From: a virus
IMG/VR virus record: IMGVR_UViG_3300023270_000001
Location: 4,140 to 68,139 of that record
Direction: 5' to 3' (one strand)
DNA: 64,000 bases
Positions within the stretch are counted from its first letter, which is position 1. Each line of letters begins with the position of its first letter. The notes beneath the pieces were generated by a model, which was given only the letters and a program-made list of their open reading frames with translations, ran no database searches and had not been told where the DNA came from. The position numbers and the translations under genes were made by a program. Shown one piece after another: positions 51,788 through 64,000 of the stretch.

Positions 51788-52081
51788 ATGAAGATTCCGA
51801 CACCGGGACAGATCGTGCTGTTCCACTTCCACGATCGCGAACGCAAGGCGCTCGTCACTCGTCCTGCGGTCGTCGTCATCCCGCCTGATGACAACAGCGG
51901 CAGGCTGTTCTGCGGCCTGTATGTGATGTGGTGGCCGGACGACAAGCCGAAGCAGCCACAGATGCTGATTCTGAGCGGGTATGCCGCCAGCAGCATGCAT
52001 GTCCCGACGACGGTCGCGCCCATGGCGTCGGACGGCGCCCCGGCTGACAACACGTGGACGCACCGCCCGGAGGATCTGTGA
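51788..52081 (+). CDS. Small protein, tandem paralog 1
   Basis: MKIPTPGQIVLFHF...TRPAVV...WTHRPEDL. Confidence 0.65.
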   Translation: MKIPTPGQIVLFHFHDRERKALVTRPAVVVIPPDDNSGRLFCGLYVMWWPDDKPKQPQMLILSGYAASSMHVPTTVAPMASDGAPADNTWTHRPEDL

Positions 52082-52335
52082 AGATTCCGACGATTGGGCA
52101 GATCGTGCTATTCCACTTCCGCCTAGGCAGATCGCAGCGCCTGTTCACGAGGCCGGCATGCGTCATCGCCGCCGAAAAAACCGGCCACTGTGACCTGAAC
52201 GTCTTCTGGGGCGCGGAGGAATATATCTACGCGCGCACGGACCGCGCGATCAAGCCATTGGTTCTCGACGTTATCATCGCGCCGGATGGCATCCCGGACA
52301 ATCACACGTGGACGTTCCGCCAGGAGGATCTGTGA
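52078..52335 (+). CDS. Small protein, tandem paralog 2
   Basis: MKIPTIGQIVLFHF...TRPACV...WTFRQEDL. Confidence 0.65.
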   Translation: MKIPTIGQIVLFHFRLGRSQRLFTRPACVIAAEKTGHCDLNVFWGAEEYIYARTDRAIKPLVLDVIIAPDGIPDNHTWTFRQEDL

Positions 52336-52676
52336 TCGACATCAAGGCGGAGCCTCGCGTGGTCACCTGGACGCGTCGAGGCGAAGTTTGCATTGGCGTC
52401 AAGAGTTGCGAATGGTGCGCAACTCTCACGCCGGATCCTACCGATGAACAGGTCATCGAGTTCATCAAGAAGAATCCCCACACCACGACGATGTGGCCGT
52501 TCGGCGGCGAGAACTACGGCGAGTTCATCCCGTCCGGATGGCGACACGTCACTATCGACGCGGATGGAAGCCCAGAATCGGGCCGCGGTGAGCGCGGAAT
52601 GCTGTGCCCGGATTGCGTCGGTCGACTCCGACAGGCGCTCGCGGATCTGAAGTCCGGCAAGGATGGCCGGCGGTGA
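52332..52676 (+). CDS. Zn-binding hypothetical protein
   Basis: CEWC and LCPDC. Confidence 0.6.
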   Translation: MIDIKAEPRVVTWTRRGEVCIGVKSCEWCATLTPDPTDEQVIEFIKKNPHTTTMWPFGGENYGEFIPSGWRHVTIDADGSPESGRGERGMLCPDCVGRLRQALADLKSGKDGRR

Positions 52677-53833
52677 AGGTCCGCTACTACGGCCACCTCG
52701 GCAAGCCCACCGGCTACGGCGATGCCGCCGGCGAGTTCTGCATGAGCATGCTCGAGGCCGGGATCGACCTCGAGATCTCCACCGACGCCAAGCAATGCCC
52801 GAACCGCTTCTTGCCACTGGCACCTTTCATCCGGGACGTGAACGAGGACAGCGCGGACGTCGACGCGGTCATCATCCACACGCTGCCGGTGAGTTGCGGC
52901 GACGTCCTAGGCGCCGTCGGTCACCTGTGCAAGGGTGTGCCGCGGATCGCGTACACGACTTGGGAGGGGTTCTCTCCGATCTCGCAGGCGGTTGCTAAGG
53001 CGCTCACCCCGTTCGACGCGATCTGGGTTCCGAGCAAGCAGACCTGCCATGCGGTGAAACACGGGCCGGGCGACTTTGACCTCGCCAAGCGCGTCGAGAT
53101 TATCCCGCACGCCTACGACCCGGCGACCAGCGCGCGCCATCGCGGGTGGCGACCAGCGACCAGCGCGTACAACTTCTACTACATCGGCGCCTGGAACCGC
53201 CGCAAGAACGTCGAGGGCCTCATCCAGGCGTACATCCGCGCGTTCGACGGGCATCACGACGTCCACCTGCACGTCCATTCGGCGGGGGCGCCGCAGACAG
53301 CGGGGCGGTTCGCGGCAATCGCGACTGGCGTACCGCAGGAGCAATGGCCGCCTATGTCGTTCTCCACTCAGCACCTCGCGGACGACGAACTCGACGCGCT
53401 CCATCAGGGCGGCCACTGCTTCGTCACCGCGACCCGGGGCGAGGCGTGGAACCTCCCCGCCTTCGAGGCGATGCTCGCACGGCGGCACATCATTGCGCCC
53501 AAGGGGCAGGGGAGCGACGACTTCCTCGCGAACACCTCGGCCGACCGCTACCGGTGCGAGGTTCGGCCGGCCGGCGGCGAGATCCGCACGGTGTCGATGG
53601 ACCCCGCCACCGGCACCGGCCGGATGCAGTACATCGGCGCGCAAGGGATGTCCGTGCACGACGACTGGCACGACCCGGATCCATCGCAACTTGCGATCGC
53701 GATGCGCCGAGCGTATCTCGAGCGCATCACCAGCCTCAGACTTGACTACGACCCCGCCGACCGGTTCTCGCGCAAGGTCGTCGGGGCGAGCATCTATAAC
53801 GCGATCGCGAGCATGAAACGGAAGACCTCATGA
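52673..53833 (+). CDS. GT-B (GT4-like) glycosyltransferase
   Basis: YTTWE, FDAIWVPSKQ, IIPH, RRKNVEGLI, TRGEAWNLPAFEAM. Confidence 0.8.
   Translation: MKVRYYGHLGKPTGYGDAAGEFCMSMLEAGIDLEISTDAKQCPNRFLPLAPFIRDVNEDSADVDAVIIHTLPVSCGDVLGAVGHLCKGVPRIAYTTWEGFSPISQAVAKALTPFDAIWVPSKQTCHAVKHGPGDFDLAKRVEIIPHAYDPATSARHRGWRPATSAYNFYYIGAWNRRKNVEGLIQAYIRAFDGHHDVHLHVHSAGAPQTAGRFAAIATGVPQEQWPPMSFSTQHLADDELDALHQGGHCFVTATRGEAWNLPAFEAMLARRHIIAPKGQGSDDFLANTSADRYRCEVRPAGGEIRTVSMDPATGTGRMQYIGAQGMSVHDDWHDPDPSQLAIAMRRAYLERITSLRLDYDPADRFSRKVVGASIYNAIASMKRKTS
52811..52823. repeat. Palindrome variant TTGCCACTGGCAC (one mismatch)
   Basis: Read directly. Confidence 0.65.
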
Positions 53834-54156
53834 GCAATCACCCATCGATGCACAACACCATCACCAAGCTGTTCGAGACCAACGGTACACCCGACGCGGA
53901 GGGGCGCCGCTTGCTCGAGTGCGTCGTGCTGATACGAGGCAGTTCTCAGGCCATGCAGGGCGTCTTGTCGGTGGAACCCGAAGGCACCCTGAAACTGCTT
54001 AGCAAACTCGGAGAGACCAAGAAGGGCATCGACCGCGTCGACCACTTCATCGAGCAGTTCTTCGAGTGGGATGATGTCGTGCTGGTCGGTGTCGTGCGTG
54101 ACGTCACGGTGAAGAACGACCTTCCAGTCCTTCGCTCATCGATCCTGGCGGGTTAG
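53830..54156 (+). CDS. Hypothetical protein (Sm-like beta pattern?)
   Basis: Overlap with upstream stop. Confidence 0.55.
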   Translation: MSNHPSMHNTITKLFETNGTPDAEGRRLLECVVLIRGSSQAMQGVLSVEPEGTLKLLSKLGETKKGIDRVDHFIEQFFEWDDVVLVGVVRDVTVKNDLPVLRSSILAG

Positions 54157-54548
54157 TCCTCGTCCTCGTCCTCGTCTTCATCATCGTCCTCATCGTCGTC
54201 GCCATCATCGGGCGACATGGCATCGAGGAGCTTGCGCTCGATCACCAGCGCGAGTTCTTCGACCCGACCGCAGCACCACGCGGTGTATGCGGCCGTCTCG
54301 TCTCCGCCGGCGGCCTTGATGTCGTCGGCGACTCCATCGTCCGCTGCCCACTTCCGCTGCTCACGCGCGGTCCGCAATGGCGCGCACACCTGCTCACACT
54401 CGGTCAAGATGACCTGATGCATGGAAGCGTCGGACGCCTTGACCTGACGCTCCAACGCGTCGAGGTCGATGTCCCGCTTGTATTTGACGACGCGCTCCTC
54501 GCGCCCCATCAGGTAGAAGTCCCAGTACCCGTCTTTGATTCGTGGCAT
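54153..54548 (-). CDS. Hypothetical protein with acidic tail
   Basis: TATGAT 6 nt upstream of ATG. Confidence 0.6.
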   Translation of the reverse strand: MPRIKDGYWDFYLMGREERVVKYKRDIDLDALERQVKASDASMHQVILTECEQVCAPLRTAREQRKWAADDGVADDIKAAGGDETAAYTAWCCGRVEELALVIERKLLDAMSPDDGDDDEDDDEDEDEDED

Positions 54549-54600
54549 GCGGCGATCATACTTGACTCGACGCCATCACGTCAGTATAGGTTTGTAACAC

Positions 54601-54789
54601 ATGGCCGACGCGAACGATGACAGCCTGGACCTGGAGGACCTACTCCAGGTGCGCGTCAGCAAGGCCGCGAAGGATGTCATTCGCGAGCTCGGCAAGAAAG
54701 CCGGGCTGAAGCCGAGCTCGATGGCCCGCGTGCTGCTGTACAAGGCGATCGGCTTCTCCCCGGGGCCGGCCAAGGGGAGGAAGTCATGA
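54601..54789 (+). CDS. Small RHH/CopG-like regulator
   Basis: LQVRVSKAAKDVIRELGKKAGLKPSSMARVLL; TTGACT promoter-like element upstream. Confidence 0.6.
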   Translation: MADANDDSLDLEDLLQVRVSKAAKDVIRELGKKAGLKPSSMARVLLYKAIGFSPGPAKGRKS

Positions 54790-55112
54790 TCCGGAAGCTA
54801 CTCGGTGGTCCACGCCAGCCTCCGCCGCCACAGCAGCGCCCGTGGGTTCGCGGCACGGTAGGCGAGGTGCCGTGCCCGCACTGTGGCCACAAGAACAACT
54901 TCACCGAGCTCGACTCCCAGCAGTTGCTGGACACCGGGCACAAGGTCGCCTGCGACAAGTGCCACCGCATGATGGAGGTCTGCCAGATTGCCATCGTGAA
55001 GGTGATCGGCGTCCGCGCGGCCGACGGCGTCGAGAGCCAGAACCCGCACAACCAGCCTGCGAGGCAGGCGTTCACGTTGTCCCCAGCGCAGGCGCGACGC
55101 CTGCTGAGGTGA
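54786..55112 (+). CDS. Double CxxC Zn-finger protein
   Basis: CPHCG and CDKC. Confidence 0.6.
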   Translation: MIRKLLGGPRQPPPPQQRPWVRGTVGEVPCPHCGHKNNFTELDSQQLLDTGHKVACDKCHRMMEVCQIAIVKVIGVRAADGVESQNPHNQPARQAFTLSPAQARRLLR

Positions 55113-55119
55113 ATCACTG

Positions 55120-55560
55120 ATGTCTGATACTCCGAGTCGTGACTACGTCGAATCGGCGCGGACAATCATGTCCGGTTGGTATATCCACCATCCACCAAAC
55201 ACAACCATTGCCGGAGAGGCTCGCGCCATCGCCAAGAGTTTACTCGAGTACATCGACGCTCTCGAGGGGAGGCACCGCGGCGAGGTCGAGCGCATCAAGG
55301 CGGACCGCGACGCGCTCCGTGATGAGCTCGATGGTCATAAGGCGACGCTGGCGCTCTTGGACGCGGACTGCGAGCACTACAAGGCGGGCTGCGAGCGCTA
55401 CAAGGCGCTACTCGCCGACCGACGAACAGGTCCGTGCAGCCTTCAAGAGGTACCCCGGACGTACCTGTCGGAGGAATACTTCCGCGACCGTCTAGTCGAG
55501 CTCACGAAGGCCGTCGACGAACTTCGCCATCGCCTCGATTCTCGAGGCAATAACCACTAG
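55120..55560 (+). CDS. Coiled-coil hypothetical protein
   Basis: Heptad pattern. Confidence 0.55.
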   Translation: MSDTPSRDYVESARTIMSGWYIHHPPNTTIAGEARAIAKSLLEYIDALEGRHRGEVERIKADRDALRDELDGHKATLALLDADCEHYKAGCERYKALLADRRTGPCSLQEVPRTYLSEEYFRDRLVELTKAVDELRHRLDSRGNNH

Positions 55561-55645
55561 GTCATCGCGGCGACCTGATAGCCCCGACTGCCACGTTCGT
55601 GGCCGCGACGTCACGATTGCGAACCATACTACCTTGAGGTCTGAG

Positions 55646-55957
55646 ATGCCCCCGAGACGCCGACCGGCACGCCAGCCGGTCATCCAGCAACCGCCCAACG
55701 AGGATGCCACTGTACGCGACTACGTGATGGCACGTGTCGCGGCGGCGCAGACGCTCGCCAAGGACGCCGAGGCAGCGCTTCACGACCTCATGGGGTTGTT
55801 CCTGTCGCCGGACGATGACCGGGACGGGGAGAAGCGCGCAGAACTCCTCCAGGAGGCGCTCGAGTCGTTCGGCGGCGCTACGCGGGCGCTCGAGGACGCG
55901 GAAAAGAGCATCGTCGACATCGACCCGGCCGAGGGCGAGCCGTGGGAGGATGAGTAG
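55646..55957 (+). CDS. Acidic helical hypothetical protein
   Basis: CATACT upstream, GAGGTCTGAGATG start. Confidence 0.6.
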   Translation: MPPRRRPARQPVIQQPPNEDATVRDYVMARVAAAQTLAKDAEAALHDLMGLFLSPDDDRDGEKRAELLQEALESFGGATRALEDAEKSIVDIDPAEGEPWEDE

Positions 55958-56258
55958 CGTGGCGGCGAACACCGGGCGGTCCGTCGAGGCCGAGATTCGC
56001 TACACGGTCGGCTTGCAGGGCGGCCCCATCGACATCCGCATCCGCGGAGTGGAGTTCAAGGTGAAGATCGACGAAGACATTCTCGTGATCAGGCGCCAGA
56101 TCCTGTCGCACGGCCGCATCGTCGATACGAAGATCGTCGGCGTTCTCGGAGGTTTGGGGTCTGGATCTTACGACGACATCGACGAGAAACTTCGCATTCG
56201 AGACTTCATGAATAACGGCGGCGTGATCGGCATCAGCAAGGAGTTGCTGGGGTCATGA
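55950..56258 (+). CDS. Hypothetical protein
   Basis: GGAGG RBS. Confidence 0.55.
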   Translation: MSSVAANTGRSVEAEIRYTVGLQGGPIDIRIRGVEFKVKIDEDILVIRRQILSHGRIVDTKIVGVLGGLGSGSYDDIDEKLRIRDFMNNGGVIGISKELLGS

Positions 56259-56317
56259 CCGAGGACAAGACGCAGTACCACGGGCGCATCGCCCAGGCGT
56301 TCACGGTGGGCAAATGA
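56255..56317 (+). CDS. 20-aa coupling mini-ORF MTEDKTQYHGRIAQAFTVGK
   Basis: ATGA overlaps with both neighbours, fills the gap exactly. Confidence 0.35.
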   Translation: MTEDKTQYHGRIAQAFTVGK

Positions 56318-57075
56318 TCAACGTTGTCATCCTCGCCCAGGGCACGCAGAAGCGACTCGGGAACGCGTGCGGCCCCAAGCAACTGCTGTCGCTGGCCGCG
56401 TGCGCCGGCGCCCCCATCATCGTACGCACGCTGCGGCAACTCGGCGACCTGGCCAGACTGCGCCCTAGTCACTTCGACATCACCGTGGTCACCTGGAAGG
56501 ATGTCTGGGCGCAGTTGGTGATGCGACACCCAGACGCGCAGAACATCGCGAAGCATGTCGAGCTCGCCGATCCCGGCAACTCCTCCCTGAAGGGGATCGC
56601 CCGCTATCTTGCCCAGCGGGACAGCACTGAACCTCAGGAGGATCGGACCATCGTGCTCCTTGGGGACGTCTGCTACTCCTGGGCGGCCCTGAACGCGCTC
56701 CTGCTGGCCTCCAGAGAGCACGGGTTCGTGGGGACCTCCAACCTATCCGAGAGCGGCGGCGAACTCTGGGGCGTGGCCTGGGCGCGCAAATTCGAGGACC
56801 AGATGACCCGCGACCTGAGCGACGCGCTCCTGCGTCACCCGCCGTTCGAGGATGAGTACCAGCCGGGGCAGATGCGCCGGTGGATACTCGGCTGGCGCAA
56901 GGGGTCGCTGGCCGAGCGCGTGGATCGGCTGCGCCGGTCCGGTCTCTACTTCGACGTCGACGACTACACGATGGACGTGGACCTTGCCATCCACATCCCT
57001 AAACTCGCAGAGGCCAGCGTCCTGGCCAGGGAGGACGACAGCATGAACGGCATGACCTGGGACTCGCCGCGTTAG
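56314..57075 (+). CDS. Sugar/choline nucleotidyltransferase-like protein
   Basis: VVILAQGTQKRLG...PKQLL N-terminal motif; IVLLGD; DVDD. Confidence 0.7.
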   Translation: MINVVILAQGTQKRLGNACGPKQLLSLAACAGAPIIVRTLRQLGDLARLRPSHFDITVVTWKDVWAQLVMRHPDAQNIAKHVELADPGNSSLKGIARYLAQRDSTEPQEDRTIVLLGDVCYSWAALNALLLASREHGFVGTSNLSESGGELWGVAWARKFEDQMTRDLSDALLRHPPFEDEYQPGQMRRWILGWRKGSLAERVDRLRRSGLYFDVDDYTMDVDLAIHIPKLAEASVLAREDDSMNGMTWDSPR

Positions 57076-57157
57076 AACAACGGAAGCTCGCCGGGGAACC
57101 ATCGTCTGACAGGAGCGATGGGACTCGGAGGAGGTGGTTCGATTCCACCACGCGACA
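57066..57157 (+). ncRNA. tRNA-like RNA with a 28-nt structured anticodon region (pseudo-tRNA or tRNA mimic)
   Basis: Acceptor 6 of 7 pairs, U8A9, D-arm with GG, 5-bp stem, 4-nt variable loop, perfect T-arm GGTGG-TTCGATT-CCACC, discriminator A. Confidence 0.55.
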
Positions 57158-57412
57158 CAGGGCTGGGAGGCTGGGTCCCTCAGCGGCCCCTAAATGCGTT
57201 GGGACCTCGTGAGTTTGCAAACGCCACGTAGAGCGTGCTGACAGCCGGGAAAGACCGGCGACTCAAGGGGTGGCTCGGAACCCTGCAATCCGACGACGAG
57301 GCTCCGCTTGGTATCCGAGACGGGATTAGTTCGTTTGCCGAGACGTGGGTGATACATGATAGGCGCCCGACCCAGAGACGGGACAAGGCGGGTATTTCGA
57401 AAGGAGTCTGTG

Positions 57413-57748
57413 ATGTTGACGATACGAGCCTGGTTGCTCGGCGCTGTGGCGCTGAAAGTTCTATCTGATGTCGTCGATGCGATCGGCCGATCGGTCGACG
57501 TCGCGATCCGGGCCACAGATAAGAGGCCGGTGCTCGATTCGGTCGACAACATCAAGCACAACCGCATTCTGCTCTGCGGCGAGGAGCGCCAGTGGGTGAG
57601 CGGAACGGAGGCTGAGATCGACGACGCGGCCACCCGCATGGCTCGCCGCACCAAGCAGTGCGTCACCGTCGCGGTGGCGATCGCTCACTATCACCGGCGC
57701 GGATGCAAGGACCTCCCGGCCGGCGGCCTCGACGTCGTGGGGAATTGA
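57413..57748 (+). CDS. Hypothetical protein
   Basis: AAAGGAG RBS. Confidence 0.55.
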   Translation: MLTIRAWLLGAVALKVLSDVVDAIGRSVDVAIRATDKRPVLDSVDNIKHNRILLCGEERQWVSGTEAEIDDAATRMARRTKQCVTVAVAIAHYHRRGCKDLPAGGLDVVGN

Positions 57749-57751
57749 TCC

Positions 57752-57937
57752 ATGGCCAACTACACGATCACCTTCACGACCGTCGACGACGTGCGGTTCC
57801 CCGGCCGATACATCCTCATCGGTGAGGTCGACGGGGTGCGCTTCTACGCCGCGTTCCATAAGCGTGGACAGCACGCCGAGGACGCCATTCGTAAGGCGTT
57901 CGCCAAGGCATTCGCGACGTCCAGATCCGGCAACTGA
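57752..57937 (+). CDS. Hypothetical protein
   Basis: Protein-like, operonic. Confidence 0.55.
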   Translation: MANYTITFTTVDDVRFPGRYILIGEVDGVRFYAAFHKRGQHAEDAIRKAFAKAFATSRSGN

Positions 57938-57951
57938 ACCACGGAGCGCCT

Positions 57952-58185
57952 GTGCCCAGCCCACCCAATCCTCCCATGACGCGCGCAGAGCGAGCCGTCT
58001 GGACTGCCGTCTACGCTGCCGTAGTCGCCGACCGCGGGGCCAACGATGCCGCAACCGCCGCCTATCGAGCTCGGCAAGCGGTCGACGCGCTGCGGCGGCT
58101 CGCTGTGCTTCCAGCCGTCCAGGATGGCGATCAGATCAAGCGCGACGCTGCGGAGATCATCTTCGGACGGAAGGGACCAACGTGA
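57952..58185 (+). CDS. Hypothetical protein
   Basis: GTGA overlap downstream. Confidence 0.5.
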   Translation: MPSPPNPPMTRAERAVWTAVYAAVVADRGANDAATAAYRARQAVDALRRLAVLPAVQDGDQIKRDAAEIIFGRKGPT

Positions 58186-58763
58186 TCGACGAGTTCAACG
58201 GCCGCCTCACCGGATGGGCGCGCTTTAGCGACTGCCGCACCATGCGGTTCCGCTTGGCTCGCTCTCTGACGTCGTCGAGCCTGCTTGTGGTGGACGGATC
58301 GGTGGTCTTGATCGACCACGCGCTTGGCGGTCCACATGAGAACGTGCCGGTCAGAAGCACTGTGTTCTGCATGCTCAACCCGAGCAAGGCGGACGCGTTC
58401 AGGCCGGACAACACCGTCACGCGTGGCATGGGGTTCGCCAGCCGGTGGGGGTGTCAACTATACGAGGCTGTCAACATCGAGCCATTCCGCTCCACCGACC
58501 CGAAGGGGCTGTACACATGGACCGACAGCGATCGGAACCACGAAGAGAACCTCCAGCACATCCTGTCGGCGTGCCGCCATGCCACGATCGTCATCGCCAG
58601 TTGGGGTGTCCACGGCGAACACCGCGGTCGCGGGCGTCAGGTCCGCACGTTCCTGGCCGACCACGGAATCAGGCTCCATCACCTAGGGCTGACCAAGGAC
58701 GGCCACCCCAAGCACCCGCTATACCTGAAGGCGGACACCGAACCAACCGAATGGAGGCCGTGA
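58182..58763 (+). CDS. DUF1643-like protein
   Basis: MLNPSKAD...DNTV, VNIEPFRSTDP, IASWG, TKDGHPKHPLY. Confidence 0.8.
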   Translation: MIDEFNGRLTGWARFSDCRTMRFRLARSLTSSSLLVVDGSVVLIDHALGGPHENVPVRSTVFCMLNPSKADAFRPDNTVTRGMGFASRWGCQLYEAVNIEPFRSTDPKGLYTWTDSDRNHEENLQHILSACRHATIVIASWGVHGEHRGRGRQVRTFLADHGIRLHHLGLTKDGHPKHPLYLKADTEPTEWRP

Positions 58764-59257
58764 TGCGCGACGTTCTCGGAGAGCGCCTTGAGAGATGGGA
58801 TGCATACCTCGACGGCAAGATCACGCTGGAGGAGGCGCGCTGCGATGACTTGCCACTGGCAAGGTACCGCCTCGCGGAGGGCGACGACGGGAAGGAGTTC
58901 GACTGGAACGACGAATCGCAGGCGACGGTCGCATGCTCGCCGCTCGTCACCGCGACGCGCGCGATCTCCGCGTACAAGGTGAATGACACCTCGGAGCACG
59001 CCGAGCTCAGCCGGTACGTGAGCGTCGGCTTGAACGCCGGGATGGCGATGGAGCAAGCCTCGAGTTGGGCGCTCGAGGTGTTCTGGGCCAGCGACAACCG
59101 CCGGCCTGCTCTCACCTGCTCGGTCATTCCGCCGGAGAGCCAGCGGTTTCGCGTCGCCTGCAACACGGTGGTCGCTGCCGTGGCGGCGGGGTCGTTCGTC
59201 GCGTCCGGCGGCCTCGAGTGGCTGGCGTGGATCCTCCTGCCCTGGAGGATGTGGTGA
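58763..59257 (+). CDS. Hypothetical protein
   Basis: GGAGG RBS; overlaps. Confidence 0.55.
   Translation: MRDVLGERLERWDAYLDGKITLEEARCDDLPLARYRLAEGDDGKEFDWNDESQATVACSPLVTATRAISAYKVNDTSEHAELSRYVSVGLNAGMAMEQASSWALEVFWASDNRRPALTCSVIPPESQRFRVACNTVVAAVAAGSFVASGGLEWLAWILLPWRMW
58850..58862. repeat. Palindrome TTGCCACTGGCAA, copy 8 (coding)
   Basis: Exact match. Confidence 0.9.
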
Positions 59258-59667
59258 GCGTCACCACAGACCTGATCGGCAAGCGCGTCACGGTCCGCAA
59301 GTACACCCCGGGCACGGTGCCGCTCGACGGATCCTGGGAGGACTACAGCGGCATCGTGCGCGCAGTCTCCACGGCGAAGCACGACGAAAACGGGCTGTCG
59401 TTCCACCTGCTCATCGAGACGACCTCGAGCGACCGCAAGGGTAGTCGCAGCGGCCCGACGCGGCTGTTCGTCGCCGACGTGACGCACGACGAGGTGCACG
59501 TGGTGCCCGGCGCATGCGGAGCCACAAATATCGGCAGCGTCTGCTCGCTACCTGCTGGCCACGATGGTTTGCACGCTTCCTGCTGGACTTGCCCAGCGGC
59601 ATCCCGCGAGTGCCTCATTCGTCAGCAGTGCACCAACAAGTGCGGGAAGAACGACCCGAAGCCATGA
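59254..59667 (+). CDS. Hypothetical protein with C-terminal Cys cluster
   Basis: GTGA overlap; CSLPAGHDGLH. Confidence 0.55.
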   Translation: MSVTTDLIGKRVTVRKYTPGTVPLDGSWEDYSGIVRAVSTAKHDENGLSFHLLIETTSSDRKGSRSGPTRLFVADVTHDEVHVVPGACGATNIGSVCSLPAGHDGLHASCWTCPAASRECLIRQQCTNKCGKNDPKP

Positions 59668-60053
59668 GCCGCAAGATGGCGCGCAAACTGCGCAAGCAGA
59701 AACCGCCGCGTGTGGACGAACAAGAACTGGCAAGCTGGCTGAAGGCCAACGCTGAACTCACTCGCCATCGCCATTGCGACTCGTACATCGAAGACCCGGC
59801 GGCGCCGGAGGCTCTCCGCGTGTTCCTGGCGTGGGCGCGATCACCTGCGCACGGGCTACTACTGCCGCCGCCGCACCCGAAGTTGTTCGCCACCGTCGCC
59901 TCCGATGGCAATAGCCTGACCGGTAAGCGGGTGAGAGTGGTCATGGCGTCGCGCTTTGGATACGTCGGGATTCACGCAGACCACAACGCGGATCACGGGT
60001 ACCAGAGCACCGCCCACGTCGCGGACTTAACCGACTTCGGCACGGAGCCATGA
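59664..60053 (+). CDS. Hypothetical protein
   Basis: ATGA overlaps; VVMASRFGYVGI. Confidence 0.55.
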   Translation: MSRKMARKLRKQKPPRVDEQELASWLKANAELTRHRHCDSYIEDPAAPEALRVFLAWARSPAHGLLLPPPHPKLFATVASDGNSLTGKRVRVVMASRFGYVGIHADHNADHGYQSTAHVADLTDFGTEP

Positions 60054-60319
60054 CCAAACACCGCAAGGTCAGCGCACGCAAGCGCCGCGGGATGCTCATC
60101 ACGAAGTTGATGGCCCGCGACGGCTGCGATTGCAGGATCTGCGGTCAACCACTCGAGCGCTCGGTCTCCGATCCGGAGAGTTGGCAGTACATCACGTTCG
60201 ACCACGTCATCCCGTCGAGCATGGGAGGTTCCTCCAAGGAGGACAACCTGCGCTTGACCCATCTGCTCTGCAACCAGCTTCGAGGGACAAACCCCGTCGA
60301 ATGGGAGGCTATCCAATGA
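60050..60319 (+). CDS. HNH endonuclease
   Basis: RDGCDCRICG, DHVIP, NL...LCN. Confidence 0.85.
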   Translation: MTKHRKVSARKRRGMLITKLMARDGCDCRICGQPLERSVSDPESWQYITFDHVIPSSMGGSSKEDNLRLTHLLCNQLRGTNPVEWEAIQ

Positions 60320-60921
60320 CGAAGAGATCCGTTTCCACCGATGCACTCGACACCCTGGGCACGCTGATCGACGACAAGCAGAAGCGCGACGCCATCCACC
60401 TTGCCGTCGAGCCTGTCGTCGCAGGAGAGGATGGACTCCTCGGCGGCAATCACATCACCGTGCGCGATGGAGCGGCATTCTATTGCGCGCCTGGCGATCC
60501 GGCGGCGCTCGGCATCGTCGACCCGTTCCTCACGGTGCAGATCAAGAAAGGTGATCGGTTCTGGTTCGTGATGTACCCAAGGATGGTGCACAGCCTCCGT
60601 CACGTGTGGACGCACCCAGCGTTTCCCGATGAGGTTCAGGTCGCACTCGACAAGGTGGCCGACGAACGCAAGGCGGAGTCCGAGAGGTGGCTTCGTGAGC
60701 ACATCGAGGCCGCTGGGTTCGACTACGACCACATCATGGAAGAGATCAAGCAGGCGCTCGGCGTGATCGGTGTGACCGGCGAGCATAACTTTGGCTGCTG
60801 GGGTCTATCGTCGGGCTCAAGCGACAGCTTTTACCCGCCGGATGATTTCTGGATGCATGCGGAGATCGTCCTCGGCATCAAACTCTCGAATCATCCATCG
60901 TACTTCGCGTGTTCATGCTGA
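60316..60921 (+). CDS. Hypothetical phage protein
   Basis: RDAIHLAVEP...GIVDPFL...LRHVWTHP-type pattern. Confidence 0.65.
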   Translation: MTKRSVSTDALDTLGTLIDDKQKRDAIHLAVEPVVAGEDGLLGGNHITVRDGAAFYCAPGDPAALGIVDPFLTVQIKKGDRFWFVMYPRMVHSLRHVWTHPAFPDEVQVALDKVADERKAESERWLREHIEAAGFDYDHIMEEIKQALGVIGVTGEHNFGCWGLSSGSSDSFYPPDDFWMHAEIVLGIKLSNHPSYFACSC

Positions 60922-60925
60922 CCTC

Positions 60926-61546
60926 GTGATCGTGATGGTATCCAACCAGACCGGCATCGAGGTCGGGCTTCTCGCCATGAAGCACCCGGGCCGGATCGGC
61001 CACATGTTCTCGCCCGGCGGCGAGCGCGGGCCATGGCGGGAACTGCCCTACGCGCTCGACAACGACGCGTGGCCGGCGCACAAGAACAAGCGTCCGCGCG
61101 ACGTCGACGCGCACCGGCGCTTGCTGCAGTGGTCGCTCATGTCCGGCATCGCGCCGCTGTTCGCGCTCGTCCCCGACGTCGTTGCTGATCGGGATGCCAC
61201 ACTGCGCGAATGGGACATCTACGCCCCCCCGATGGCGGCGATGGGGTTCCGGCTCGGGTTCGCTGCACAGGACGGCATGACGGCGGCCGACGTTCCCGAC
61301 AGCGGTTGCATGGTGTTCCTCGGCGGCTCGACCGCGTGGAAGGATGCGGCGATCGCGCCGTGGTGCGCGGCATTCCCGGGCCGCGTGCATGTTGGTCGCG
61401 TCAACGGCTGGCCGAGGCTGCTCGCATCATGGCGCGCTGGCGCGGTGAGCGTCGACGGCACCGGGTGGTTTCACAAGGGCAACGGCGGCGTCTCGCAGGC
61501 GGCCGATTTGCGCAAATTCCTGCGGGAGACACAGGACACGCCGTGA
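60926..61546 (+). CDS. TGT/DpdA-like TIM-barrel protein
   Basis: ALDND, VPDVVAD, AQDG, FLGGST.WK, HVGRVN, SVDGT motifs; coupled to queD. Confidence 0.5.
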   Translation: MIVMVSNQTGIEVGLLAMKHPGRIGHMFSPGGERGPWRELPYALDNDAWPAHKNKRPRDVDAHRRLLQWSLMSGIAPLFALVPDVVADRDATLREWDIYAPPMAAMGFRLGFAAQDGMTAADVPDSGCMVFLGGSTAWKDAAIAPWCAAFPGRVHVGRVNGWPRLLASWRAGAVSVDGTGWFHKGNGGVSQAADLRKFLRETQDTP

Positions 61547-61953
61547 TCGCGACGATATCCAAGACGTTCACATTCGACGCAGCCCACCGACTCGACCGGC
61601 TGCCGCCGGAGCACAAGTGCCATCGCATGCACGGGCACACCTACCGTGTCGAGCTCATCCTGAGCGGCCACGTCGCCGATAACGGGTTCCTGCTCGACTA
61701 CGCCGACATCGCCGAGATGTGGGCGCCGCTCCACGAACTGCTTGACCACCGCATCCTCAACGAGGTTCCAGGGCTCGATGTGCCCACCACCGAGAACCTC
61801 GCCGGGTGGATCCTGTCCCGCATCGGCTGGGATGGGCATCTGTCGTTCACCGTCCGCGTATTCGAATCGTCGACGACGTGGTGCGAGATGAAGTACTGCG
61901 ACATCACCCTCGCCGAGGCGCGCTACTTCCGCACCGGCGAGCTTGCTCGATAG
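61543..61953 (+). CDS. queD: 6-carboxytetrahydropterin synthase
   Basis: FDAAH, KCHRMHGHTY, LDH, PTTEN, VFES. Confidence 0.9.
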   Translation: MIATISKTFTFDAAHRLDRLPPEHKCHRMHGHTYRVELILSGHVADNGFLLDYADIAEMWAPLHELLDHRILNEVPGLDVPTTENLAGWILSRIGWDGHLSFTVRVFESSTTWCEMKYCDITLAEARYFRTGELAR

Positions 61954-61983
61954 CTTCGGCATCGAGACATGACGGCCATGCAT

Positions 61984-62313
61984 TCAATGCTGGATCAGAT
62001 CCGCCGTCGTCCCATCAGGGCGAACGAACAGCTTCGCCTGCCCGGGGTACTTCGGATCTGGCTCAGCGACCTCACGAAACGTGTGGATGGTGCCGCACGT
62101 CGAGCACCCGATGGTTTCGCCGATGGTGGCGCGCTCGGGATGATAGGCGCCGATCAACTGCAAGCGACCGACGCCACAGCACAGCACCGGAAGGAACCCG
62201 TGATCGAACAGGCCGTCGTCGTGCAGTTGGCCGGGTTGGCCACGGATGCAGGCGATCTCGTCGTACTTGACCGTTCGGACCTTCCAGGGCTGGCGGAGCT
62301 TGATGCGTCCCAT
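61984..62313 (-). CDS. Small Zn-ribbon protein
   Basis: CCG...CSTCG; start placed at 62313. Confidence 0.5.
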   Translation of the reverse strand: MGRIKLRQPWKVRTVKYDEIACIRGQPGQLHDDGLFDHGFLPVLCCGVGRLQLIGAYHPERATIGETIGCSTCGTIHTFREVAEPDPKYPGQAKLFVRPDGTTADLIQH

Positions 62314-62342
62314 GCCGGCTTGTATAGCACCGCGCCGCGCGT

Positions 62343-62380
62343 ATACTAAATAGTTATTTAGTATCCCCGTTCTATAGAAC
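62343..62380. promoter_or_regulatory. AT-rich double palindrome between divergent genes
   Basis: ATACTAAATA-GT-TATTTAGTAT and GTTCTATAGAAC. Confidence 0.6.
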
Positions 62381-62405
62381 CCATGTGATTTCAAGGAGTT
62401 ACGAG

Positions 62406-62753
62406 ATGAGCACCAAGGTCTGTTTCGAGTACCAACTGCACTGGCCGACGACGGCGCGGCCGGATACGGAGCGAACCGAGCGCTATCGACTAGTGGTCGC
62501 GGCGGACTCCGACGATGGCGATGGGCCGAGCGCCACGATGACGCTGCTCCTTGAGGTCCCCGGGCCGACCGGGGATCCGCAGTGGGTCGATATCTCGGGC
62601 GGCAGCAGCGCCCATCGGCTCATGGCGCCGGTGCTCCTGCGGATGTTCGCCTGGGGCTCCGGAGTCGGGACCTCTAAGCCTCAGATCCGCGAGAACGCAC
62701 ACGGCGTCCGCTTCATCAACCTCGGCCTGCTGAACTACGAGGAGGCGAAGTAG
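62406..62753 (+). CDS. Hypothetical protein
   Basis: AAGGAG RBS. Confidence 0.6.
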   Translation: MSTKVCFEYQLHWPTTARPDTERTERYRLVVAADSDDGDGPSATMTLLLEVPGPTGDPQWVDISGGSSAHRLMAPVLLRMFAWGSGVGTSKPQIRENAHGVRFINLGLLNYEEAK

Positions 62754-62755
62754 TC

Positions 62756-63781
62756 ATGTCTCGCCCGATCCGCATCTATCTCGCGTCCTCGTGGCGCAAC
62801 GCCTATCAGGCCACCGTGCTCTCCGAGCTTCGAGCCGCTGGCTTCGAGGTCTACGACTTCAAGAACCCCGCCCCGGGCAACCAGGGGTTCGGCTGGCGCC
62901 AGACCATCGACCGGCCGATCGCCACCGCGGCCGATCTTCTCGAGGCGCTGGCGCACCCGCGCGCCGTCGCGGGCTTCAAGTTCGACTTCGACGCGATGAA
63001 GTGGGCCGACGTCTGCGTGCTCCTCTTGCCCAGCGGGAATAGCGCACACCTCGAAGCCGGCTGGATGGCCGGCCAGGGGAAGAACGTCGTGGTGCTCGCG
63101 CCCGAATTGAGGGAGCCAGAGTGCCTCGACGACCCCGACGGGCGCACGCCGCTGTTCATGACCACCGCAGAGGTGATCGATCACCTCTGGCGAACGGAGA
63201 TCCTGAAGGCGCCGGCGGCCGGTCTCCGAGCGCCGGCGGAACCACCAAGCCTGTCCACCATCTTCATGGGGCTGCCAAATCCCAACTCAAGCCTGATCAC
63301 CGACGACAAACGCGACGCGATCGCCGCCTTCGCGCGTGATGCCAAGACGCTCCACAACCTCGGGTTCCAGATTCGCTCCGACCGCGGCAAGGTGTTGATG
63401 GCGGTCGACTGGCAGCCTGGCGAGTTCTATGCGCTGACACCTGACGAGGCGCGCACGCTTGCGGTGATGGTCGAGGCGATGGCCGACCTCGCACCGCGGA
63501 CGATTTCGCCGGCCGTGTCGACCAACCCCCTGATCCGCGCGGCTACCGCTACGCCAGCCGTGTTCGCTCATCCGGAATCCGAGCTCGCGCAATTGCGTGA
63601 GTCGGGTCGACTCAGCATGCTCGAAGTCGAGCGCATGCGTCCGGTCTACGAGGCAGCGAAGCGCATGATCCCCGACTGGCATGACACGTCGGGGTCATGG
63701 ACACGCGTCGACGCCATGAACGACCACTGCAACGCGATCACGAAGGCCGTCGAAGCGGCGGAAGCGGCGGTGAAGCGATGA
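62756..63781 (+). CDS. Nucleoside 2-deoxyribosyltransferase-like N-terminal domain plus unknown C-terminal region
   Basis: IYLASSWRN, ADVCVLLLPSGNSAHLEAGW. Confidence 0.7.
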   Translation: MSRPIRIYLASSWRNAYQATVLSELRAAGFEVYDFKNPAPGNQGFGWRQTIDRPIATAADLLEALAHPRAVAGFKFDFDAMKWADVCVLLLPSGNSAHLEAGWMAGQGKNVVVLAPELREPECLDDPDGRTPLFMTTAEVIDHLWRTEILKAPAAGLRAPAEPPSLSTIFMGLPNPNSSLITDDKRDAIAAFARDAKTLHNLGFQIRSDRGKVLMAVDWQPGEFYALTPDEARTLAVMVEAMADLAPRTISPAVSTNPLIRAATATPAVFAHPESELAQLRESGRLSMLEVERMRPVYEAAKRMIPDWHDTSGSWTRVDAMNDHCNAITKAVEAAEAAVKR

Positions 63782-64000
63782 CCCGAGACGACAAGATCGC
63801 CAGCGCACGCGGGGAGGTCATCGACATCCTCAAGCACAAGCGCGCTCGAGAGCATGAGCGTGCGCTTGAACGCGCGCGGAGGCACAGCGAGCGCGCTCGG
63901 CGTCGAGCCGGCTGGGTCAACGCGTTCTCCATGCGCATCACGATCACTCGGCCGCGGGGGTTTCGCGCGTGGCTGATCATGCTGCCCTGGTACATCATGC
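63778..64000 (+). CDS. Hypothetical protein, runs off the window edge
   Basis: ATGA overlap; open to the end. Confidence 0.5.
   Translation, partial: MTRDDKIASARGEVIDILKHKRAREHERALERARRHSERARRRAGWVNAFSMRITITRPRGFRAWLIMLPWYIM

Follow-up and report, generated by a model that had tools for sequence, protein, structure and literature searches.

Could a protein of little more than 200 residues, encoded directly upstream of a viral queD gene, exchange bases in the DNA of the virus that carries it? Phages use the modification of DNA with 7-deazaguanine bases as a major counter-defence to restriction and CRISPR, one for which DpdA serves as the accepted signature gene, such that a small and divergent candidate for the same chemistry bears on where these systems are to be looked for. 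A preliminary description of the locus considered here, made from the nucleotide sequence, had seen a clear queD translationally coupled to a TGT/DpdA-like barrel, and had proposed a minimal modification system drawing on precursors from the host. The observation is confirmed by the present analysis and the interpretation is partly supported. The best explanation to emerge is that the pair comprises a minimal DpdA-like base-exchange enzyme coupled to QueD, which would modify the viral DNA with a host-dependent 7-deazaguanine; we place the probability of this reading at roughly 0.55.

The locus and its genes

The window, that is, the whole stretch of 64,000 nucleotides that was analysed, corresponds to bases 4140-68139 of a parent record of 86,414 bp which has direct terminal repeats and a completeness estimate of 100%. 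The stretch occurs as contigs from leaf-litter and soil metagenomes of 2018, a small share of it also being present in one run from 2021, with no RNA dataset listed; a megablast search found no near-identical phage matching positions 52000-64000. The features of the pair are collected in Table 1.

Table 1. Features of the P0001-queD pair (positions in the window).
Feature	Positions	Strand	Basis
P0001 gene, predicted minimal TGT/DpdA-superfamily TIM barrel	60926..61546	+	translation, family alignment, AF2 model, structural neighbours, profile alignments
queD (P0002, 136 aa), 6-carboxy-5,6,7,8-tetrahydropterin synthase	61543..61953	+	PF01242, TIGR03367, conserved residues
GTGA start/stop overlap of P0001 gene and queD	61543..61546	+	direct sequence reading

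Translation gives P0001 a length of 206 residues from the GTG at 60926 or of 203 from the ATG at 60935, the latter being the start used in public gene calls. The upstream start is favoured because, in the family alignment, homologues begin with M-x-V-M-V-S-N. At its other end the gene runs into queD, the GTG start of which (61543-61545) overlaps the TGA stop of P0001 (61544-61546) by four nucleotides, with an AGGA ribosome-binding motif at 61533-61536, six bases 5' of the GTG. As read from the sequence, this GTGA overlap would couple the two genes, in keeping with what had been described, and the same gene boundaries are present in the public gene calls for four independent contigs. A scan of positions 57000-63000 for promoters and terminators gave nothing useful.

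The downstream gene product is, as originally assigned, a clear QueD. P0002 matches PF01242 with an E-value of 6e-29 and the QueD equivalog model TIGR03367 with 95.4 bits, above the curated cut-off of 89.25 bits. It keeps the CxxxHGH signature (C26-H-R-M-H30-G-H32) together with H15, D68-H69 and E108, and C26, H30, H32, H15, D68-H69 and E108 are invariant in the 26 QueDs that adjoin members of the P0001 family. The signature, comprising the catalytic Cys and two Zn-binding His residues, sets QueD apart from the DpdL decarboxylase with its LxxxHRHxF motif (PMC10516641); identification of P0002 as a DpdL was considered and rejected, since the catalytic Cys is retained. A predicted complex of P0001 with QueD scored 0.02, below the mark of 0.32, which speaks in neither direction as regards binding.

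A conserved family of small barrels

P0001 itself has no match in Pfam (E up to 1) or NCBIfam, and PADLOC matches neither P0001 nor P0002; the sole family match is to PHROG 15826, of unknown function. The family is nevertheless large, with 1200 matches in a 90%-clustered collection, 1625 representatives at 50% identity, 403 of which lie below 1e-10, and a further 346 stretches on viral contigs. The TGT model PF01702, the DpdA model PF23859 and the DUF6610 model PF20314 match none of 75 diverse relatives at E-values up to 0.05, canonical phage DpdA1 being likewise without a Pfam match, and sequence searches of the PDB with P0001, both by phmmer and with a profile, gave nothing meaningful.

Across these 75 homologues (30-81% identity) D45, P83, T92, Q115, G133, G134, H155, S175 and D177 are invariant, while N46, D84, R158 and others are nearly so. 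All five motifs quoted in the preliminary description for its protein of about 205 residues, namely ALDND, PDVVAD, QDG, HVGRVN and SVDGT, are confirmed in the translation, and they are not due to chance, as residues within each of them are invariant or nearly so across the 75 homologues.

Actinophage members of the family are labelled 'DpdA-like tRNA-guanine transglycosylase' in GenBank, and the fold assignment is therefore not new, although the family is uncharacterised: a literature search found no paper describing it or a further DpdA subfamily. The member in Erythrobacter phage ZS04 (L007:4001-4642) is annotated as a 'DarB-like antirestriction protein', a label for which no support was seen. 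The supplement of the 2019 census contains no entry for six phages that bear the family, Fishburne, R6L and ReqiPine5 being three of them. Since the family is missed by Pfam, by NCBIfam and, for these six phages, by that census, surveys which rely on known DpdA models may under-count modified viruses.

Fold and putative active site

An AF2 model of P0001, calculated with the family alignment as input (pLDDT 95.2, pTM 0.91), has eight strands alternating with helices, commensurate with a (beta/alpha)8 TIM barrel. In an exhaustive structural comparison with 48,161 PDB representatives the top four were TGT (3unt, Z 13.0), DpdA (7ui4, 12.7), Cap10 (9ntn, 12.7) and the archaeal TGT, arcTGT (1iq8, 12.6); QTRT2 also matched, at Z 11.2. 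Next after the top four, and no more than one Z unit behind, come unrelated TIM barrels, such that the fold alone does not decide the family to which P0001 belongs. A Foldseek comparison, which the preliminary description had suggested as a check, placed DpdA 7ui4 at rank 4 in the PDB, within a set of weak (E about 4e-4) and mixed TIM-barrel matches. A search of BFVD, a collection of structures predicted for viral proteins, gave nine phage proteins with a queuine or guanine tRNA transglycosylase name among its 26 top matches. In the ESM Atlas, shape places P0001 closest to the named clusters DUF6610 (a partial match), TGT, DpdA (PF23859) and TgtA, the full-length TGT, DpdA and TgtA clusters having TM values of 0.73-0.76 as against 0.64 for TrpA; by language-model features, the nearest are DUF6610 (0.92) and DpdA (0.86).

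DSSP analysis of the model places conserved residues at the C-terminal ends of the strands: D45 (strand 3), D84 (4), Q115 (5), G133-G134 (6), H155 (7) and D177 (8). An aromatic residue is also conserved at position 49, four residues on from D45, being W49 in P0001 and F or Y in relatives. The bacterial DpdA enzyme has its acid/base residue, Asp95, immediately ahead of the beta3/alpha3 insertion (97-109), with Phe99 at +4; its beta8/alpha8 insertion (256-383) opens with the nucleophile Asp256, and the base is recognised by Asp130 and His181 (PMC10164549). P0001 shares this active-site topology and the +4 aromatic residue. Overall, the model supports a TGT/DpdA-type barrel with the expected layout of catalytic Asp residues. 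In other words, the fold and the Asp arrangement of the original assignment stand, but they do so with no match to a curated TGT, DpdA or DUF6610 model and with neither a Zn site nor insertions.

Residue correspondence with the known enzymes rests on topology and on weak profile alignments, obtained from pairwise hhalign runs against shallow alignments. With the DpdA1 alignment (probability 29-33%, E about 5e-4), D45/D63, D84/D105 and GG/G153-G154 are in register, and S-V-D177-G-T-G-W falls on S-C-D206-S-S-S-W; in CAjan DpdA, D63 and D206 have been predicted to form the catalytic pair (PMC7544227). With DUF6610/DpdA4 (probability 41%), D84, Q115/His, H155 and SVDG/SIDG are aligned. A comparison of the family alignment with the single sequence of HVTV-1 gp69 was uninformative.

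By analogy with TGT and bacterial DpdA, P0001 would work by double displacement. In the proposed scheme D177, at the end of strand 8, would act as the nucleophile that attacks C1' and expels guanine, and D45, at the end of strand 3, would be the acid/base that activates N9 of the incoming 7-deazaguanine. D84 and Q115 would read the Watson-Crick edge, W49 would serve as an aromatic gate that stacks on the base, and G133-G134 are proposed to belong to the catalytic site as well. P0001 has no structural Zn site and no large beta8/alpha8 insertion, its chain ending 29 residues after D177; it contains just two Cys residues (C128 and C147), both outside the invariant and near-invariant columns, and no CXCXXC motif. 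The family is the smallest TGT-type barrel in this comparison and, if active, would define a minimal catalytic core for base exchange and provide a small tool for replacing bases at chosen sites.

Genomic context across the family

The surroundings of the family were compared at 81 loci, comprising 80 related viral loci and the window. QueD is the commonest real neighbour, found at 31 of the 81 loci by counts based on BLAST clusters, in which at least one QueD known from a Pfam search (L033) went unrecorded; it is always on the same strand and directly adjacent. QueE-like proteins adjoin the family at 12 loci and QueC-like proteins at 10, both confirmed against NCBIfam, in which one of each scores above the curated cut-off. 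At least one of QueD, QueE and QueC is present at 45 of the 81 loci, in partial sets: QueD only at 29, QueE only at six, QueE with QueC at six, QueC only at two and QueD with QueC at two. Moreover, three distinct proteins, which are 64, 63 and 46% identical to P0001, are fusions of an N-terminal barrel to a C-terminal QueD. This adjacency and fusion to QueD, QueE and QueC throughout the family strongly supports a link to 7-deazaguanine. The family also recurs beside a DnaC/IstB-like loader, a C5 DNA methylase and terminase subunits, so that in tailed phages its gene closes the block of replication and modification functions.

A similar arrangement is seen in bacterial assemblies, searched with a family alignment of 24 rows. 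The nearest copies, in a Steroidobacteraceae assembly and a Deltaproteobacteria MAG, have 63-66% identity to P0001. QueD adjoins the Steroidobacteraceae copy and three other copies in bacterial assemblies; the Deltaproteobacteria contig ends within the gene. A cellular QueC is encoded in four of the five bacterial genomes that carry a family member.

Inasmuch as QueD by itself is both the commonest partner and the only fusion partner found, the context also accommodates a TGT-like barrel with another substrate or acceptor. Such a protein might insert CDG or a pterin base derived from QueD, act on free deoxynucleotides before replication, or transfer a 7-deazapurine onto a protein in the manner of CBASS Cap10. 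In this regard, insertion of CDG, albeit inefficient, is known for DpdA2 of phage VH7D and has been proposed for DpdA3 (PMC10516641), while Cap10, level with TGT and DpdA among the structural neighbours of P0001, belongs to the TGT family and has been remodelled to modify protein (bioRxiv 10.1101/2025.04.06.647259). The presence of QueE and QueC beside other members, however, points away from a pterin and towards CDG/preQ0 or a later compound as the product, and the base-recognition residues of P0001 (Asp, Gln/His) are those used for guanine-like bases. Equally, the virus yielded neither a Cap9-like nor a CD-NTase gene, whether by PADLOC on five local proteins or by PHROG on 100 frames. A different substrate or acceptor is therefore held to be fairly unlikely. 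Less likely still, indeed highly improbable, is a self-contained two-enzyme system in which the inserted base comes directly from the QueD product, as CPH4, another pterin-type compound or an unknown derivative, and not from preQ0; were it true, it would represent a new class of nucleic-acid modification.

Comparison with known transglycosylases

Phage DpdA1 (CAjan, phiG7; 306 aa) has the same type of barrel as P0001 and the same ordered motifs, namely L-D-[SN]-G-A-F, a D after strand 4, GG, and S-x-D-x-x-x-W with the nucleophile Asp; like the P0001 family it is linked to preQ0 genes and lies in the DNA metabolism block (PMC7544227). P0001 is, on the other hand, about 100 residues shorter and has no HMMER-level similarity to DpdA1, with an hhalign probability of about 30%. 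The genetic setting differs also: CAjan-type phages carry the whole FolE-QueD-QueE-QueC set whereas this virus has QueD only, and the complete viral preQ0 pathway with DpdA that is known from CAjan and Rosebush is thus not reproduced here.

The DpdA4/DUF6610 proteins (PF20314), represented by gp69 of Halovirus HVTV-1, have a catalytic domain similar in size to P0001 (about 200-240 aa) and closely similar motifs, R-L-D-N against A-L-D-N and S-I-D-G-N against S-V-D-G-T. DpdA4 is described as specific to archaeal viruses, and PF20314 misses P0001 as well as all 75 relatives, the hhalign probability being 41%. HVTV-1 gp69 has in addition an extra N-terminal region of 134 residues, and the virus encodes a full pathway with QueF that gives dPreQ1 (PMC10516641).

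Bacterial DpdA, from the Dpd restriction-modification system (7ui4), has in common with P0001 the TIM barrel, an Asp after strand 3, the +4 aromatic, a recognition Asp and an Asp after strand 8. At 413 residues, however, it contains the insertions Ins1, Ins2, Ins3 and the 128-residue Ins8 and a CXCX2CX22H Zn site, and it requires the DpdB ATPase (PMC10164549); P0001 has none of these. The actinophage proteins labelled as DpdA-like, such as gp54 of Mycobacterium phage Phegasus and gp81 of Sonali, belong to the family of P0001 itself (30-41% identity, about 203-205 aa). Their label is a database annotation for which the literature yielded no publication or assay and, whereas the P0001 gene overlaps queD, no que genes are annotated within 3-4 kb either side of theirs. 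We take the family to be a separate, minimal subfamily of DpdA-like proteins.

Coexistence with canonical DpdA

Some phages encode a member of the family as well as a canonical DpdA. Vibrio phage R29Z has an intact member (L093:2881-3465; 34% identity, E 7e-18) 1.2 kb downstream of a DpdA1 orthologue, and in Escherichia phage phiG7 (Seuratvirus), where canonical DpdA1 is also present, the member at L008:4938-5530 is split over two small CDS. In both of these Queuovirinae-type phages the family member lies just upstream of the DNA polymerase. Arthrobacter phage Sonali likewise carries a family member together with a second TGT-like gene. Since the P0001 family and DpdA1 occur together in R29Z and phiG7, they are not orthologues; the canonical DpdA of Queuovirinae-type phages is a protein distinct from the P0001 family, and P0001 may not simply be 'the DpdA'.

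Coexistence of this kind could indicate a barrel which has no catalysis of its own, either as an accessory or regulatory subunit, comparable to QTRT2 with the eukaryotic TGT, or as a decayed paralogue. The split copy in phiG7 and the place of QTRT2 among the structural matches are in line with this possibility. Yet the Asp residues at catalytic positions (D45, D84 and D177) are invariant or nearly so over 75 members, which would be unexpected for a non-catalytic subunit, and neither this virus nor any of 30 related records yielded a catalytic TGT/DpdA partner, making a non-catalytic role very unlikely. More specifically, 30 long viral records carrying the family, including complete genomes with adjacent QueC and QueE, have no match to PF01702 (TGT), PF23859 (DpdA) or the DpdA1 profile; the blanks for DpdA and DpdA1 weigh little, as control genomes were matched only for PF01702.

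In CAjan, deletion of dpdA alone abolishes all preQ0 (PMC7544227), and it is in a genus-mate of this phage, phiG7, that the family copy looks split. Mycobacteria, the hosts of the mycobacteriophage members, are without any preQ0 pathway (PMC6884629). The coexistence with DpdA, the CAjan deletion and the mycobacterial hosts together leave room for a different target or substrate. In a milder version of the self-contained system, the family may make up a fifth subfamily of DpdA that is self-sufficient and has a target of its own, without redundancy to DpdA1.

Precursor supply and the remainder of the viral genome

The absence of folE, queE and queC, first noted for the window, holds for the whole record. 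Searches of the complete 86,414 bp found no FolE, FolE2, radical-SAM/QueE, QueC, TGT, DpdA or DUF6610, the models PF01227, PF02649, PF04055, TIGR04508, PF06508, TIGR00364, PF01702, PF23859 and PF20314 all being empty; six-frame searches of the genome extended to E-values of 1 for PF01702 and of 10 for PF20314 and PF23859. FolE is similarly missing from the 30 long viral records that carry the family. With no FolE, QueE or QueC in the virus, most of the supply of a 7-deazaguanine precursor must come from host enzymes, to which the viral QueD would add at one step; the suggested dependence on host precursors is to this extent supported by the lack of the remaining preQ0 pathway genes.

In the mechanism which we prefer, QueD would convert host 7,8-dihydroneopterin triphosphate, formed by the host FolE, to CPH4. 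Production of CPH4 would pull flux into the preQ0 branch, and the QueE and QueC of the host would then complete preQ0. P0001 probably exchanges guanine for a 7-deazaguanine base made from this mostly host-derived precursor. We infer the identity of the substrate base, DNA as the nucleic-acid target and a protective role; the most likely target would be the DNA of the virus itself, after replication, giving protection from host restriction. Several features count against the overall reading. There is no match to a curated HMM, and profile-profile probabilities are only 29-41%; P0001 has no counterpart of the insertions from which bacterial DpdA builds its DNA-binding surface, such that DNA binding by the bare barrel is putative; and the benefit of carrying QueD alone is not obvious. 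The partial, mix-and-match pairing with QueD, QueE and QueC, along with the coexistence with DpdA, bears on how viruses tap the queuosine metabolism of their hosts and on a possible second target.

A PHROG scan of the 100 predicted proteins of the whole genome matched 39 families at E-values below 1e-5. The 25 of these that were shown include an integrase, endolysins, DNA methyltransferases, a glycosyltransferase, a sugar epimerase, peptidases and a transposase, and among the same 25 there is no terminase, portal, capsid or tail family; the five largest proteins of the virus have no PHROG match. This content fits with the virus not being a tailed phage. The occurrence of the family in an 86-kb virus without recognisable tailed-phage structural genes would extend such modification systems beyond the tailed viruses of bacteria.

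DNA or RNA as the target

Base exchange of the same type is also carried out on RNA. Archaeal TGT, for example, inserts preQ0 at G15 of tRNA, and P0001 could correspondingly exchange bases as a tRNA-guanine transglycosylase, in the tRNAs of the host or in a tRNA-like RNA of the virus, so as to tune translation during infection. Its closest solved neighbour is a bacterial tRNA TGT, with the archaeal TGT within 0.4 Z, and it is without the DNA-binding insertions of bacterial DpdA (PMC10164549); the coexistence with DNA-acting DpdA1 in some phages further suggests a target that is not redundant with DNA modification by the latter. The tRNA-recognition insertions and Zn subdomain of TGT are, however, likewise absent from P0001. 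A tRNA mimic had been described about 4 kb upstream, but no tRNA gene was found in or near it, by ARAGORN across the window or by Rfam over positions 56000-64000 at E-values up to 1. Moreover, the copies in tailed phages lie in the DNA replication and modification block beside DNA methylases and a helicase loader. An RNA target appears, on this basis, to be quite unlikely, and modification of viral DNA remains the preferred reading.

Neighbouring genes

Directly 5' of the P0001 gene, at 60316-60921 (+), is a gene for a protein of 201 residues that has no Pfam match and a weak PADLOC match to PD-Lambda-2_B (E 8e-5). Upstream of the pair in the same rightward block are genes for a DUF1643 protein (58182-58763, +; E 8e-33) and an HNH endonuclease (60050-60319, +). 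DUF1643 recurs close to members of the family at two further loci, L012 and L028.

On the other side, a gene for a protein of 341 residues (62756-63781, +) starts some 0.8 kb 3' of queD. A conserved partnership of P0001 and QueD with this gene was considered and rejected, as none of the 80 related loci contains such a gene. It nonetheless represents a second enzyme of the base-exchange type near queD. The N-terminal 120-144 residues of its product are 45-53% identical (E ~1e-29) to phage proteins annotated as nucleoside deoxyribosyltransferases, with sub-threshold Pfam matches to PF15891 and PF05014, and in the whole-genome PHROG scan phrog_12607 (nucleoside deoxyribosyltransferase) was matched at an E-value of 5e-42, presumably through this same gene.
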